Source: an uncultured Candidatus Saccharibacteria bacterium (GTDB lineage: Bacteria > Patescibacteriota > 4484-211 > JAGQKX01). From it: a stretch of DNA of 64,000 nt. A program made the translations under genes and the position numbers. The stretch covers positions 285,498-349,497 of the forward strand of contig CAYMOT010000001.1 in assembly GCA_964392315.1 (NCBI GenBank), written 5' to 3'. Positions 5,096-36,842 of the stretch are shown here, one piece after another. The notes beneath the pieces were generated by a model that did not search any database, was not told where the DNA came from, and saw only the letters and a list, made by a program, of their open reading frames with translations. The first letter of the stretch is position 1, and the number at the start of each line of letters is the position of its first letter.

Positions 5096-6250
5096 ATGAA
5101 CATAAAGAAAGATGATATTTGGAACAAGCTTCATCACCATTACTCTGCCCAAGATTGGATAAATAAACCAAATATTTTTGCAGAAGAAGTACTAGAGTAT
5201 TTTCCCAAGGAGGGCAATATACTTTGTTTAGGTGACGGGCAAGGTCAGGATGGCAGGTTTTTTGCTTCTAAGGGCTATAAGGTGCTCTCTACTGATATTT
5301 CGGATTCAGCGTTAGAAATAAACAATAAAAAGATCATAGAACAAGGATTAAGTGGTATCAAAACTGAAAAGCTTGATTTAACTTCCCTCTTTCCTTACGA
5401 AGCCAGATCATTTGATGTTGTCTATGCCCACCTATCATTACATTACTTCACTGAAGATATAACAAAACAGATTTATAGCGAGATGAGACGAGTATTAGTA
5501 AAAGGTGGTATTGTGGCGATTCTTGTTAATTCGATCAATGATCCTGAATTCAATACAGAAAGAAGAATTGAACAGGAATTGTTTGAAATCGAAGGAATAG
5601 CAAAAAGGTTTTTCTCGAAATATTCGATGGATCATTTTGCCTACGATTTTCAAGTGATTCTTTTGGATGATAAAGGAAGAACGTATAAAGATGAGGCTAA
5701 AAATGTACATAACCTCGTTAGATTTATCGGAAGAAATTATCCAAGAAAGGTCGATAACAAAGCACTACCTTTTGTTTCGGCTATTGTAGAGCGGGAAAGT
5801 AATGGAGAAACAGAAGTGTTGATCCAGACACGATGGCGACCCAATGCTGAATGGAACTACCACAACACCATAGAGATTCCTGCTGGTGTTTTAGATAAAG
5901 ATTATGAGGATGTAGTCGACGCTGTGAAACGTGAGGTTAAAGAAGAGACAGGGTTAGTTGTTAGTGAAATAGTCGGATCGGAAAGATCAAACATGTACAC
6001 TCCAAATAATGATGCCTCGTATGCATTCAGACCATTTGCTTGCTCCCAACAGCTGAAGGGTGGACTCCCTTGGGTTGGATTTGCTTTTATTTGTAAGGTT
6101 GAAGACGCAGAGCTTAAGCATCAAGAAGATGAAACGAGAGATATTAGGTGGATTAAAAAGAGTGAACTAAAACAGTTATTTCTAAAATCACCAGAAAAAT
6201 TCTTTACGCTTCATCTAGGAACGCTAGAATTGTATTTAGAAGGCATTTAA
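5096..6250 (+). CDS. Fusion protein: N-terminal class I SAM-dependent methyltransferase plus C-terminal NUDIX hydrolase
   Basis: The methyltransferase glycine motif reads ILCLGDGQGQDG ... VLSTDIS. The C-terminal Nudix box reads GVLDKDYEDVVDAVKREVKEETGL, matching GX5EX7REUXEEXGU. Confidence 0.6.
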   Translation: MNIKKDDIWNKLHHHYSAQDWINKPNIFAEEVLEYFPKEGNILCLGDGQGQDGRFFASKGYKVLSTDISDSALEINNKKIIEQGLSGIKTEKLDLTSLFPYEARSFDVVYAHLSLHYFTEDITKQIYSEMRRVLVKGGIVAILVNSINDPEFNTERRIEQELFEIEGIAKRFFSKYSMDHFAYDFQVILLDDKGRTYKDEAKNVHNLVRFIGRNYPRKVDNKALPFVSAIVERESNGETEVLIQTRWRPNAEWNYHNTIEIPAGVLDKDYEDVVDAVKREVKEETGLVVSEIVGSERSNMYTPNNDASYAFRPFACSQQLKGGLPWVGFAFICKVEDAELKHQEDETRDIRWIKKSELKQLFLKSPEKFFTLHLGTLELYLEGI

Positions 6251-6461: not shown

Positions 6462-6776
6462 TTATTTTTGATTATAGAGCTGATACACGTCAATTGCAGG
6501 AGTTTCGTAAGGGTGTACTGATTTGATTGCTGTGACTACTGCATCGAGTGCATGTTCTGGACAAACCATTTCCACTCTTGTTTCCGGCTCCTGGCTCATT
6601 GTACCGACCGTCCCTATTGTTGGGTTGGAGCCTTCTCCTGAGAACCAATTGCCCATGCCGTTTGTAATAAATGCATTATGCGTATAGTTGCCCACCACTC
6701 CGGCACCGGCTTCTGCCATTGCCCGGATGAGTGCATCAACATGTATCTCAGGAATAAAGGTTACAATTTTAAACAT
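6462..6776 (-). CDS. GlnB/PII-like superfamily small protein, CutA-like
   Basis: The sequence MFKIVTFIPE ... ETRVEMVCPEHALDAVVTAIKSVHPYETPAIDVYQL contains an HPYExP motif as in CutA1 and the Nif3 PII-like insert. The track ORF (to 6848) runs into tRNA-Cys, so the start was moved to ATG 6774-6776. Confidence 0.4.
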   Translation of the reverse strand: MFKIVTFIPEIHVDALIRAMAEAGAGVVGNYTHNAFITNGMGNWFSGEGSNPTIGTVGTMSQEPETRVEMVCPEHALDAVVTAIKSVHPYETPAIDVYQLYNQK

Positions 6777-6787
6777 ATACACGCTTT

Positions 6788-6862
6788 TGGAGGCCTGGGC
6801 GGGAGTCGAACCCGCGTATAAGGGTTTTGCAGACCCTTGCCTTACCACTTGGCTACCAGGCC
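6788..6862 (-). tRNA. tRNA-Cys (anticodon GCA)
   Basis: The reverse complement reads GGCCTGGTAGCCAAGTGGTAAGGCAAGGGTCTGCAAAACCCTTATACGCGGGTTCGACTCCCGCCCAGGCCTCCA. It folds as a cloverleaf with an anticodon stem AGGGT/ACCCT, loop CTGCAAA, a GTTCGA T-loop, discriminator U and an encoded CCA. Confidence 0.85.
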
Positions 6863-7024: not shown

Positions 7025-8935
7025 ATGATTACTATTACTGCGTGGGAATTTGTAGAGAAATATTTAGACTTTTTTAAGAAGCATGGGCATGCCATTTTGC
7101 CAAACGTCAGCCTAGTACCGAAAGAAGACCCGACGACCTTATTTATTAACTCAGGAGTACAGCCTATCGAAAAATATCTCGCCGGAGAGTCTCACCCATT
7201 GGGCAAGCGGCTTGCATCTGTACAGCGGTGTGTGCGTACTAAAGACTTAGAAGGTCCGGTTCATGATAGTGTTGGTGACAGTACGCACCATGTATTGTTC
7301 CATATGTTGGGGAATTGGTCGTTGGGTGACTATTTTAAAAAGGAGACAATCACTTGGTCGTATCAATTTCTTGTCGATGATTTGCATATAGATCCAAAAC
7401 GCATTTGGGTGACCATATTCGCAGGGGATCAAGACGCACCATTTGATCAGGAAGCAAAAGACACGTGGTTATCTCTCGGTATTCCAGACGAGAGAATAAT
7501 ACCTCTTGGGAAAGAGGATAACTGGTGGGGTCCCGCTGGGCTAACCGGTCCCTGTGGTCCAGATACCGAGATTTTTGTAGATAGACTCCCGGAGCGTGGG
7601 ATGAATGGAGAGACTCCAGGAGAAGAGTTTAAACATACTGAACGCTTTATTGAAGTGTGGAATAACGTGTTTTCTCAATATTATAAAGATGCTCAAGGCA
7701 CCTTTACGGAACTTTCCCAAAAGAATGTTGACACTGGCATGGGGCTTGAAAGAACGATCGCAACGCTACAAGGTTTCTCGGATAATTACCAGACAGAGCT
7801 TTTTCTGCCGATTATTGAGAAGATTGAGTCGCTTTCGGGGAAAGCCTATCCACGACAAAAGACTGGAGATTGGACGCCACTTCCGTTAACTGACGAGATT
7901 CGTGCATTTAGAATTATTGCTGAACATGCCCGTTCATCAATATTCATGGCAATGGATGGTGTTACCCCTTCAAACAAAGAGCAAGGATATATTCTGCGTC
8001 GGATTATTCGGCGCCTTGTGCGGTTTGGTGCACAATTGGGGATTTCTGAAGAACGTTCATTAACACGGGCTTTGGGTGAAGTGGTCATCAGTGAATATGT
8101 AAGAATATATCCACAGCTTAGTGAGGCAAAAGAGTATATCCTCACTATTCTTGACGCTGAAGAACAGGCATTTACACAGTTGCTTCGCCGCAGTAACCAG
8201 CTTGTTCATAAAATTATTGCAGCGCAAGAGGGATCTATACAGAATACGCTTACAGTTGATGGCGCAGCGTTAACTCTAGGCGCTTTTGGTTTTTATATGT
8301 TTGAGACCTATGGCCTGCCGGAGGATGTAACATTGGGTGCGTTACAAGACGAAGGGATTGCTCTCGATGAAATTGTTATAAAGAAATTTAATGAAGATTT
8401 TGCACTCGCAAAGAATAGACACGAGGAGAGTTCCCGTGCTGCCTCTGCTGGTCGGTTTGCTGGAGGACTTGCTGACCATTCAGCAGAAACAACGAAACTC
8501 CACACCGCAACACATTTACTGCACAAAGCGTTGCGTACGGTATTGGGTGAGCATGTGCAACAAATGGGAAGCAATATTACTAAGGATCGGCTGCGTTTTG
8601 ATTTTTCGCATGATGAAAAATTAACGGACGACCAGATTACAAGAATTGAGCAATTGGTAAACGAGGCTATTCGGCAAGATTTGTCTGTGATCCAAAAGAC
8701 CATGCCGTATCATGAAGCAATTGCACGTGGTGCGCTTGCATTTTTCCAGGAAAAATATCCCGAAACTGTTTCTGTGTATGTGGTTGGGGACGAACAGTCT
8801 CCGTTTAGTATGGAATTGTGTGGCGGGCCTCATGTAGACCGTACAGGTGATTTGGGGCTATTTCGTGTTACAAAGCAGGAAAGCGTTGGCAAAGGAGTAC
8901 GACGCCTTAAGGCAACACTTGAGGCAACAAACTAA
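7025..8935 (+). CDS. alaS: Alanyl-tRNA synthetase, short form of 636 aa lacking the C-Ala domain
   Basis: Class II catalytic motifs are present (FINSGVQP, QRCVRTKDLEG, WWGPAGLTGPCGPDTEIF). The editing domain is present (HTATHLLH ... CGGPHV). The protein ends right after the editing domain. Confidence 0.9.
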   Translation: MITITAWEFVEKYLDFFKKHGHAILPNVSLVPKEDPTTLFINSGVQPIEKYLAGESHPLGKRLASVQRCVRTKDLEGPVHDSVGDSTHHVLFHMLGNWSLGDYFKKETITWSYQFLVDDLHIDPKRIWVTIFAGDQDAPFDQEAKDTWLSLGIPDERIIPLGKEDNWWGPAGLTGPCGPDTEIFVDRLPERGMNGETPGEEFKHTERFIEVWNNVFSQYYKDAQGTFTELSQKNVDTGMGLERTIATLQGFSDNYQTELFLPIIEKIESLSGKAYPRQKTGDWTPLPLTDEIRAFRIIAEHARSSIFMAMDGVTPSNKEQGYILRRIIRRLVRFGAQLGISEERSLTRALGEVVISEYVRIYPQLSEAKEYILTILDAEEQAFTQLLRRSNQLVHKIIAAQEGSIQNTLTVDGAALTLGAFGFYMFETYGLPEDVTLGALQDEGIALDEIVIKKFNEDFALAKNRHEESSRAASAGRFAGGLADHSAETTKLHTATHLLHKALRTVLGEHVQQMGSNITKDRLRFDFSHDEKLTDDQITRIEQLVNEAIRQDLSVIQKTMPYHEAIARGALAFFQEKYPETVSVYVVGDEQSPFSMELCGGPHVDRTGDLGLFRVTKQESVGKGVRRLKATLEATN

Positions 8936-35881: not shown

Positions 35882-36409
35882 ATGATAGATACAAAGAAAC
35901 CAAAAACACAAACTATGGAACAAGAACATAAAGATACTGAATATCTTGAACAACTCGTTGAGCTTAAACGTACATCCAAAAAAACCAAGGGGGGTAACAG
36001 GTTTCGTTTTGCAGCATTAGTAGTAGTAGGTGATCGAAATGGTATGGTGGGAGTTGGGGTAGGCAAAGCAAAAGATGTAAGTGCTGCGGTAAAAAAAGGT
36101 GGACGCCAAGCAAAAAAGGCCATGTTTCCCATTCAACTCGTTGGAGAAGCACGAACGATTGCACATGATGTCCGTAAAAAGTATAAATCAGCTCAAATAC
36201 TTCTCAAGCCTGCGCCGCTTGGTACGGGTATTATTGCGGGTGGAGCGATTCGTACCATTGCAGAAGCAGCAGGCATTCGGAATGTCGTGGGTAAAATTAT
36301 TGGCAGCAAAAACAAAAAAAGTAATGTAAAAGCAACGATTATGGCACTAAGAAGCATTAAACCAACATCAGCTCGCAAAATTACTCGTAAGGTATCGAAG
36401 ACTAAATAA
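35882..36409 (+). CDS. rpsE: 30S ribosomal protein S5
   Basis: It has [38 protein letters not shown]. Confidence 0.93.
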
Positions 36410-36410
36410 T

Positions 36411-36842
36411 ATGCAACTACATTCATTACCAAAATTAAAAGGGGTTCAAAAACGTGGAAGGCGTCTTGGTAGAGGACTGGGAAGTTCTAAAGGAAAAACA
36501 TCAGGACACGGAATTAAGGGGCAAAGTGTACGCAATCGGTTAAAGTTGAGACGTTTACAAATATTTAAGCAATTCCCGTTTTTAAAAGGAAAATCCGGCC
36601 GGCGGGTACAGTGGTCTATGCGACCGTACACCGTTACGTTGAATCAATGTAACACGCTGGATACGGAAAAACTCACACCTCAAGTATTGTTGGATGCTGG
36701 AGTAGTAAAGGATACAAATATGCCCATAAAAATCCTCGCTAATGGCACATTGACGCATGCACGTACATTCTCGTCTGAGTTTACATTTTCGAAAAATGCA
36801 CGAAAAAAGATAGAAGAGGCTGGTGGTACAATACAAAAGTAA
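36411..36842 (+). CDS. rplO: 50S ribosomal protein L15. It follows rpsE directly, with no L30 gene in between.
   Basis: It has KGVQKRGRRLGRGLGSSKGKTSGHGIKGQ. A 1-nt gap after rpsE leaves no room for rpmD. Confidence 0.9.
   Translation: MQLHSLPKLKGVQKRGRRLGRGLGSSKGKTSGHGIKGQSVRNRLKLRRLQIFKQFPFLKGKSGRRVQWSMRPYTVTLNQCNTLDTEKLTPQVLLDAGVVKDTNMPIKILANGTLTHARTFSSEFTFSKNARKKIEEAGGTIQK

Follow-up and report, generated by a model that had tools for sequence, protein, structure and literature searches.

Does a single polypeptide that combines a methyltransferase with a Nudix hydrolase act as a bifunctional enzyme, and if so, on which kind of molecule? This question is raised by an open reading frame (ORF) of 384 amino acids (aa) in a stretch of 64,000 nucleotides (nt) from an uncultured Candidatus Saccharibacteria bacterium (assembly GCA_964392315.1, contig CAYMOT010000001.1, positions 285,498 to 349,497 of the forward strand), which we call the window. 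A preliminary description, made from the sequence alone, had recognised in this ORF an S-adenosylmethionine (SAM)-dependent methyltransferase joined to a Nudix hydrolase and had proposed that the two activities are coupled in one pathway. We report that the fusion is real and that its two families are evolutionarily linked, and we propose, with a probability of roughly 0.45, that it is a bifunctional enzyme whose active sites both work on a single small molecule derived from a nucleotide, probably as part of nucleotide salvage or house-cleaning.

A conserved two-domain protein

Gene calls on 16 independent contigs, from several samples and sequencing runs, give exactly the same 384-aa protein. 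A search of 5.8 billion clustered proteins retrieved 252 related clusters at 90% identity, of which the best 120 are all full-length fusions of 370-403 aa with the same domain order, a conserved junction and 45-99% identity. Named sources are metagenome-assembled genomes (MAGs) of Candidatus Saccharimonadales/Saccharibacteria and, among some Chlamydiae, Criblamydia sequanensis. The preliminary description considered the two activities uncommon in one chain, which holds in general but not for this lineage. A frameshift, a sequencing error or a chimeric assembly that joined two neighbouring genes had been named as a possible source of the architecture; it is ruled out by the 16 identical contigs and by the more than 120 clusters of the same architecture, and the reading frame is continuous across the confidently modelled junction. 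No support for such an artefact turned up, although both halves do exist as stand-alone proteins, and we leave it a negligible probability. A frameshift is indeed present in the copy of one Chlamydiae MAG (L032 4932-6157), but it lies within the methyltransferase half, where it leaves two overlapping ORFs and marks either a pseudogene or an assembly error. Sequences of the fusion are already public under generic names ('methyltransferase domain-containing protein', 'UbiE/MutT'). The MAGs that hold the closest relatives (L009, L010, L027, L028, L030, L075) are labelled 'uncultured Gammaproteobacteria bacterium'; these labels are probably wrong, and homologues and window gene content look like those of Saccharibacteria or other members of the Candidate Phyla Radiation (CPR).

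Both domains are matched above the Pfam cut-offs, and both motifs lie where the preliminary description had placed them (Table 1). Methyltransf_25 matches aa 42-138 (E 8.4e-15, 55.7 bits against a cut-off of 27), Methyltransf_11 reaches 54.8 bits (cut-off 21.2), the two together spanning aa 42-142 (E about 1e-14), Methyltransf_12/31 match the same module, and NUDIX (PF00293) covers aa 230-361 (E 4.1e-14, 53.2 bits, cut-off 21.1). The division into two halves stands, while the sizes given for them (about 190 aa each) do not: because stand-alone homologues end and begin there, we place the boundaries at aa 1-213 and 223-384, with a linker at aa 214-222. The N-terminal module comprises a lid helix, a Rossmann core and a conserved C-terminal beta subdomain that ends in ...GVHNLVRFIG. 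Both folds are modelled with confidence by AlphaFold2, with a mean predicted local distance difference test score (pLDDT) of 89.7 and a predicted template modelling score (pTM) of 0.60 for the whole chain, and values of 88.3 and 0.85 for the Nudix domain alone.

By sequence and predicted structure the N-terminal half is a member of the class I SAM-dependent methyltransferase superfamily, for which methyl transfer is predicted. Its cofactor motif is intact, since in an alignment of 50 family members L43, L45, G46, G48, Q51 and D52 of motif I are invariant, as is D67 (VLSTD), which closes a predicted strand (62-67) and, judged by this position, would correspond to the acidic residue with which beta-2 ends and which binds the ribose of SAM. 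Invariant positions continue in the candidate acceptor pocket DVVYAHLSLHYF (D107, Y110, H112, L113, S114, H116, Y117, F118), and a set of invariants is specific to this family (W9, Y16, W21, YAHLSLHYF 110-118, N145, D149, P150, K170, R171, GxTYKD 194-199 and R209), which points to one conserved acceptor. Sequence and fold alike place the METHYLTRANSFERASE half among small-molecule class I methyltransferases. Foldseek assigns a probability of 1.00 to many methyltransferase structures; the matches include 2p8j of C. acetobutylicum (profile E 7e-17, Foldseek E 2e-14), Slr1183 (3mer, target template modelling score 0.87; also 2kw5), TehB (2xva), Rv0560c (7ndm) and halide and thiol methyltransferases, rather than nucleic-acid methyltransferases. 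The first four have in common with the fusion the class I Rossmann fold and a short C-terminal beta subdomain (Foldseek E 2e-14 to 5e-12, target score up to 0.87), but at an identity of just 13-21% and without its invariant YAHLSLHYF, NSxxDPE, KR and GxTYKD; 2p8j and Slr1183 are deposited only as a generic methyltransferase and as 'Slr1183 protein'. Fold searches gave no specificity for either half.

The C-terminal half is likewise, on sequence and model, a member of the Nudix hydrolase superfamily with predicted pyrophosphate hydrolysis, and its model shows an alpha/beta/alpha Nudix fold in which a loop-helix-loop carries the box. Its catalytic motif is intact as well. The preliminary description had called the box canonical, and this applies to its core: EX7REUXEEXGU is matched exactly by E271-x7-R279 E280 V K E283 E284 T G L, with REVKEETGL at aa 279-287. 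The full 23-residue box deviates from GX5EX7REUXEEXGU in that the spacing from G264 to E271 is x6 and not x5, one residue more than usual; this spacing is conserved across the fusion family, and all metal-binding and catalytic positions are present. In the same alignment E271, E280 and E284 are invariant, while R279 is found in 45 and E283 in 44 of the 50 fusions. The predicted model aligns the box with the catalytic helix, where a misfit would have spoken against the earlier assignment: R279, E280, E283 and E284 all lie on helix 273-285. A phmmer search of 1.84 billion cluster representatives found just 320 relatives at E<=1e-3, which makes this Nudix half a small, distinct subfamily. Past the box follows a long loop at the position of the Nudix 'X-loop' (aa 298-326), in which D306, F311, P313, Q318, Q319 and W326 are invariant or nearly so.

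Evolutionary history of the two families

If the fusion reflects a functional link, the halves may be expected as separate genes elsewhere, and the preliminary description had proposed to look for them. Loci were collected by a scan with the family alignment, one genome per species, whereby 80 of 142 loci were kept; ORFs of these loci, of L005-L008 and of the window were then classed by blastp against each half. Among the resulting 84 loci, 29 are fused, 40 carry the methyltransferase alone, 14 the Nudix alone and one (L067) both genes, adjacent and convergent. Both halves do therefore occur as separate genes. Stand-alone methyltransferase ORFs end at about aa 213, and the stand-alone Nudix proteins (about 170-190 aa) come from Nomura-, Magasanik-, Falkow-, Doudna-, Davies-, Uhr-, Buchanan- and Liptonbacteria, a Calditrichia MAG and a Woesearchaeota MAG.

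In Saccharibacteria and other CPR, the class I methyltransferases that stand alone (about 212 aa; e.g. P0285, P0305, P0311) belong to the same family as the N-terminal half: they are 45-78% identical over aa 1-213, possess the same invariant residues and reach the profile scores of fused members. Unlike the fusion they have no Nudix domain, and they are annotated only as 'class I SAM-dependent methyltransferase' and are themselves uncharacterised. Those of L027, L028 and L030 are 70-78% identical to the methyltransferase half of the window, closer than most fused proteins, and no Nudix remnant was found near them. A profile search with this half found 1,253 related clusters, the best 120 of which come in two forms only and with equal scores, the single domain of about 212 aa and the fusion to NUDIX of about 381 aa; within these 120 the present Nudix is the sole fusion partner of the methyltransferase family.

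Relatives of the Nudix half are the stand-alone CPR proteins of about 170 aa (e.g. P0123, L054, L062) and fusions with other partners, all of the same subfamily, with 40-60% identity over the whole domain and the signatures LxQTRxKP, LExPxG, REVxEETGL and F-x-PFCC-x-QQL in common; most of them have the canonical G-x5-E, whereas the methyltransferase fusions have G-x6-E. The other partners are ASCH, ABM, DUF2064, a pyrophosphatase-like segment (a weak match), GGACT, GNAT and a nucleoside 2-deoxyribosyltransferase-like domain (Nuc_deoxyrib_tr in P0218, E 1e-14).

In neighbour-joining trees calculated without bootstrap support, the fused methyltransferases are intermingled with the stand-alone ones, and the Nudix of the window clade groups with stand-alone CPR Nudix and not with other fusions. 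These patterns suggest repeated fusion and fission of the two families. A further locus (L069) has a gene of this Nudix subfamily whose start is overlapped by another kind of class I methyltransferase. The existence of separate genes, the interleaved trees, the adjacent pair and the exclusive partnership on the methyltransferase side make a good evolutionary case for a functional link between the two families, in line with the coupling first proposed, and the stand-alone forms show that the covalent link between the halves is dispensable.

Possible functions of the fusion

In the reading that we favour at roughly 0.45, the Nudix domain, predicted to be competent, would split a derivative of a nucleoside di- or triphosphate at a pyrophosphate bond, and the methyltransferase would place its methyl group on that nucleotide substrate or on one of its hydrolysis products. 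Together, both steps would remove or convert a non-canonical nucleotide, as a salvage or 'house-cleaning' activity that could be useful to a reduced, host-dependent organism living on scavenged nucleotides. We infer here that the substrate is shared, that it is a nucleotide derivative, and in which order the two reactions proceed. The nucleotide theme is drawn from partner domains of the Nudix subfamily (ASCH and the deoxyribosyltransferase-like domain) and from scattered neighbours (ASCH, Maf, further Nudix and cytidylyltransferase-like genes, DNA polymerase I, and HAD and HD hydrolases; see below). DNPH1 belongs to the deoxyribosyltransferase fold family. It is a sanitiser of the nucleotide pool (PMC10603095), and ASCH enzymes remove the acyl group of N4-acylcytidine and take part in nucleotide salvage (PMC6972931; preprint 10.64898/2026.08.01.741249). 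Of the two pathways considered in the preliminary description, the one that combines methylation with pyrophosphate hydrolysis on a nucleotide-derived substrate is to be preferred; we adopt it on indirect evidence that falls short of a demonstration, and the remark that function cannot be assigned from sequence alone was right.

Several observations weigh against such a shared nucleotide substrate. In about 40 of the 84 loci the methyltransferase has no Nudix within 5 kb, so it works without an attached Nudix. The pTM of 0.60 for the full chain against 0.85 for the isolated domain gives no sign that the active sites face each other. A survey that covered the neighbours of five divergent members, the clustered flanking ORFs of the 84 loci and a bulk Pfam scan of 142 neighbours revealed no conserved operon or partner, and the associations with PolA, HAD and HD genes (5-10 of the 84 loci, see below) could be inherited Saccharibacteria synteny. 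Neither half comes near the cut-off of any curated functional family (NCBIfam, and profile searches of the PDB with each half), and the GNAT, GGACT and ABM partners have no connection to nucleotides. Finally, one subclade of fusions (P0068, P0099, P0109, P0118, also P0105 and P0114) combines intact methyltransferase motifs with a degenerate box, HEIxSESGL, and P0105 and P0114 have no NUDIX Pfam match; the Nudix domain of this subclade may be non-catalytic, in which case hydrolysis is not always required.

Part of this evidence would also fit a fusion of convenience, in which gene fusion in compact CPR genomes would have brought together a detoxifying small-molecule methyltransferase and a Nudix for general house-cleaning that have neither a substrate nor a pathway in common. 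Besides the stand-alone methyltransferases, the missing operon and the poorly defined geometry between the domains, this explanation can draw on the at least eight unrelated partner domains of the Nudix subfamily and on the base composition of the gene, the AT-richest of the window, as might be expected of an accessory gene. Yet the same two families are repeatedly joined or adjacent in different clades, with no second partner seen for the methyltransferase, another methyltransferase adjoins the Nudix subfamily in L069, and the fusion persists in members with as little as 45% identity and in two phyla (Saccharibacteria and Chlamydiae). We regard a union of this kind as rather unlikely.

The X-loop bears on a further alternative, an NDP-X (nucleoside diphosphate linked to a moiety X) pathway. 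Here the Nudix half would be a diphosphatase of the adenosine diphosphate (ADP)-ribose, NDP-sugar or cytidine diphosphate-alcohol type, and the released non-nucleotide moiety (a phospho-sugar, a phospho-alcohol or a cofactor fragment) would then be methylated, which implies a metabolite or cofactor pathway instead of nucleotide sanitation. The concept of the X-loop is taken from PMC5389931, and ADP-ribose diphosphatases have a conserved proline in it about 15-17 residues past the box (Dunn 1999, reviewed in PMC5389931). P303 lies 16 residues past the box in the window protein, and 36 of the 50 members agree, a position that is suggestive, at the level of sequence, of ADP-ribose diphosphatases; but there is no ADP-ribose-specific profile match, and the loop is much longer than usual. 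We consider this pathway unlikely.

Alternatively, the Nudix domain might mainly bind a nucleotide and thereby recruit or regulate the methyltransferase, like the Nudix domains of NrtR and TRPM2-NUDT9H. Such a sensor is difficult to reconcile with the window protein and about 90% of the sampled members, which keep the full R-E-x2-E-E with E271 invariant, or with the stand-alone Nudix proteins, which keep the catalytic set as well, and it appears improbable.

The second pathway of the preliminary description, processing of RNA caps or of nicotinamide adenine dinucleotide (NAD) caps, is not supported. In its general form an RNA 5'-end enzyme is proposed, the Nudix removing and the methyltransferase methylating NAD or dinucleoside-polyphosphate caps (or 5'-triphosphates). 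The best near-full-length NCBIfam match of the Nudix half is the RppH model (aa 236-361, E 7.7e-5), and weak Nudt16-like Pfam matches occur; besides, methylated NpnN caps exist in E. coli, where RppH removes NpnN caps but not their methylated forms, and the responsible methyltransferases were still sought in 2020 (PMC7044304). The scores, however, lie far from membership: the protein scores 22.1 bits with the RppH RNA pyrophosphohydrolase model (cut-off 116) and 16.3 with the NAD diphosphatase model of the NudC decapping enzyme (cut-off 158), and aa 288-330 contain no SQPWPFPxS. The fusion also has no RNA-binding module, its methyltransferase half is of the small-molecule type, with the mRNA cap guanine-N7 methyltransferase far down the profile list (E 7e-7), and no RNA-metabolism genes recur among the 142 neighbours scanned. 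An RNA 5'-end enzyme is improbable in our view. The same applies, if anything more strongly, to cap editing, in which the methyltransferase would methylate and the Nudix hydrolyse dinucleoside polyphosphates or NAD-type caps, on RNA or as free precursors; if it were true, the fusion would be a candidate for the bacterial NpnN-cap methyltransferase (PMC7044304).

Should the two halves indeed work on one nucleotide derivative, this would add an unrecognised nucleotide-processing step in Saccharibacteria, other CPR and some amoeba-associated Chlamydiae, organisms that depend on scavenged nucleotides and large parts of whose metabolism are still unannotated. In any case the fusion links a widespread, uncharacterised CPR methyltransferase family (the 1,253 clusters) to a Nudix subfamily that is small and has a distinctive loop as its candidate specificity determinant. 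It offers a tractable route, as one protein could annotate both families and the other fusions as well (ASCH, deoxyribosyltransferase-like, DUF2064, GNAT). We consider it a solid but ordinary case of a conserved uncharacterised protein, with two textbook folds and an architecture already present in public databases.

Genomic setting and comparison with known systems

The window represents core chromosome, with ftsK, alaS, rpoB, rpoC, tuf and the ribosomal-protein operon. With a guanine-plus-cytosine (GC) content of 0.371 the fusion gene is the lowest of the 66 window ORFs (mean 0.434, z = -2.6), and its low GC and patchy distribution suggest an accessory, possibly transferred gene. A scan for promoters and terminators gave nothing above shuffled expectation. 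Upstream of the fusion the window has HD and EamA genes, which recur in no other contigs than near-identical ones, and the commonest neighbour families in the Pfam scan are other NUDIX (5) and other methyltransferases (3). DNA polymerase I lies upstream in nine of the 84 loci, and in six of them the end of polA overlaps with or adjoins the beginning of the methyltransferase gene, which suggests co-transcription or translational coupling of both genes in several Saccharibacteria loci. HAD hydrolases are found in ten loci and an HD hydrolase of about 200 aa in five.

Two other contigs show different surroundings. On the closest long contig (L005 7476-13146, GCA_034680565.1) an ASCH gene follows the fusion after 3 nt, weakly related to the ASCH domain fused to Nudix in P0121 (29% identity, E 8e-4), and both genes border a patch of the mobile-element or defence type with DUF4411, Peptidase_M78, cREC_REC, HTH_3 and a serine recombinase. 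On a Saccharibacteria contig (L008 1763-9271) the fusion stands beside Maf, a MutT-like Nudix, an FMN reductase, another class I methyltransferase, an FMN-dependent dehydrogenase, a cytidylyltransferase-like gene and a NUDT9-like Nudix, a neighbourhood that seems devoted to the house-keeping of nucleotides or NAD.

Just downstream of the fusion, and convergent with it, lies an ORF of about 104 aa with a NIF3/YqfO-insert-like (PII/CutA-like) look and a weak CutA1 Pfam match. In three phylogenetically distant loci this ORF or a homologue lies within two genes of a member of the methyltransferase or Nudix family: in the window, in Buchananbacteria near a Nudix that stands alone, and in Criblamydia, here apparently as a tandem duplicate. 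A tRNA-Cys (GCA) at 6788-6862 (-) separates it from alaS; since the longest form with a GTG start (6462-6848) would overlap this tRNA, the true start is probably the internal ATG (MFKIVTF...). The alanyl-tRNA synthetase (7025-8935, +; 636 aa) ends just past the tRNA_SAD editing domain and seems to be devoid of the usual C-terminal domain. Further along, at 35882-36842 (+), S5 (35882-36409) is followed after 1 nt by L15 (36411-36842), with no L30 gene between them. This direct succession is typical of CPR/Patescibacteria and fits the Saccharibacteria-like homologues.

Table 1. Positions of the fusion, its parts and related features (in the window unless a locus or protein is named)
Feature	Position	Strand	Remarks
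Methyltransferase-Nudix fusion ORF	5096..6250	+	ATG start, 384 aa, stop TAA 6248-6250
Class I SAM-dependent methyltransferase module, aa 1-213	5096..5734	+	Pfam, Foldseek, end of stand-alone homologues
SAM-binding motif I (glycine-rich loop), LCLGDGQGQDG, aa 43-53	5222..5254	+	50-member alignment
Motif IV and following loop, aa 107-118	5414..5449	+	candidate methyl-acceptor pocket, proposed
Inter-domain linker, aa 214-222	5735..5761	+	variable sequence; block pLDDT 78-82; boundary from stand-alone halves
Nudix-fold domain, aa 223-384, small distinct subfamily	5762..6247	+	
Nudix box, aa 264-287, G-VLDKDY-E-DVVDAVK-REVKEETGL (G-x6-E-x7-REUxEExGU)	5885..5956	+	
Long family-specific loop past the box, aa 298-326, X-loop position	5987..6073	+	candidate specificity determinant, proposed
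polA ending 4-16 nt inside or 3 nt before the methyltransferase start (stand-alone or fused)	L016 2344-4998; L044 2464-4995; L050 29-1753; L064 and L066 2476-5007; L085 17-2644		
ORF of about 104 aa and homologues	window 6462-6776; L084 3664-3984; L007 2168-3193	- (window)	
Nudix subfamily fusions to other domains	P0121 (ASCH), P0126, P0138/P0146/P0148, P0171, P0194/P0224, P0212/P0267, P0218; L069 802-1746		

Several curated families were compared with the protein and rejected. TehB, the tellurite/selenite methyltransferase, scores 24.5-32.7 bits with the NCBIfam models (cut-offs 218-303), and its Pfam match (27.8 bits) lies beneath the stronger generic Methyltransf_25. The MutT 8-oxo-dGTP diphosphatase reaches 18 bits with TIGR00586 (cut-off 97.9) and 16.4 with PRK10776 (cut-off 148); stand-alone Nudix relatives reach 26-38 bits, and none of ten such relatives comes up to any curated NCBIfam cut-off. 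The MADS/PDC-S07 anti-phage defence suggested by PADLOC was discarded likewise, as the mad2 match concerns only the generic methyltransferase core (aa 8-165 against positions 257-419 of a 492-residue model) and that of PDC-S07 extends over 66 residues (E 7e-6); none of the three neighbouring ORFs scanned has a PADLOC match. The best NCBIfam match is the uncharacterised methyltransferase-domain selenoprotein MduS (NF045649; aa 5-190 against model positions 7-195, E 1.4e-22), with which the N-terminal module is shared. Its C-terminal half, unlike that of the fusion, carries CxxU selenocysteine motifs and no Nudix (PMC13188914), and membership fails at 80.1 bits against a cut-off of 380, with only positions 7-195 of 338 covered, no in-frame UGA and a Nudix as the C-terminal half. 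In the selenoprotein review MduS appears only as a name and a motif, which gives no functional lead (PMC13188914).

Searches of the literature for methyltransferase-Nudix fusions, for Nudix proteins in Saccharibacteria and for ASCH with Nudix found nothing relevant, and a survey of the Nudix clan from 2017 (PMC5389931) does not contain the word 'methyltransferase'. Nudix fusions with two functions are known as such; no description of a methyltransferase partner was found in the literature searched. NadM-Nudix (NMN adenylyltransferase/ADP-ribose pyrophosphatase, 2qjt/2qjo) and Tnr3, in which a Nudix is joined to an enzyme of the thiamin pathway, are both bifunctional, but differ from the present protein in the partner and in the Nudix subfamily. 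A functional analogy, as opposed to membership, is offered by human TPMT and NUDT15, a small-molecule S-methyltransferase and a Nudix hydrolase that act on the same family of non-canonical (thiopurine) nucleotides (PMC12259257, PMC12259244). In contrast to the fusion these are separate proteins, and the TPMT Pfam match of the methyltransferase half (E 0.067) is below the cut-off.

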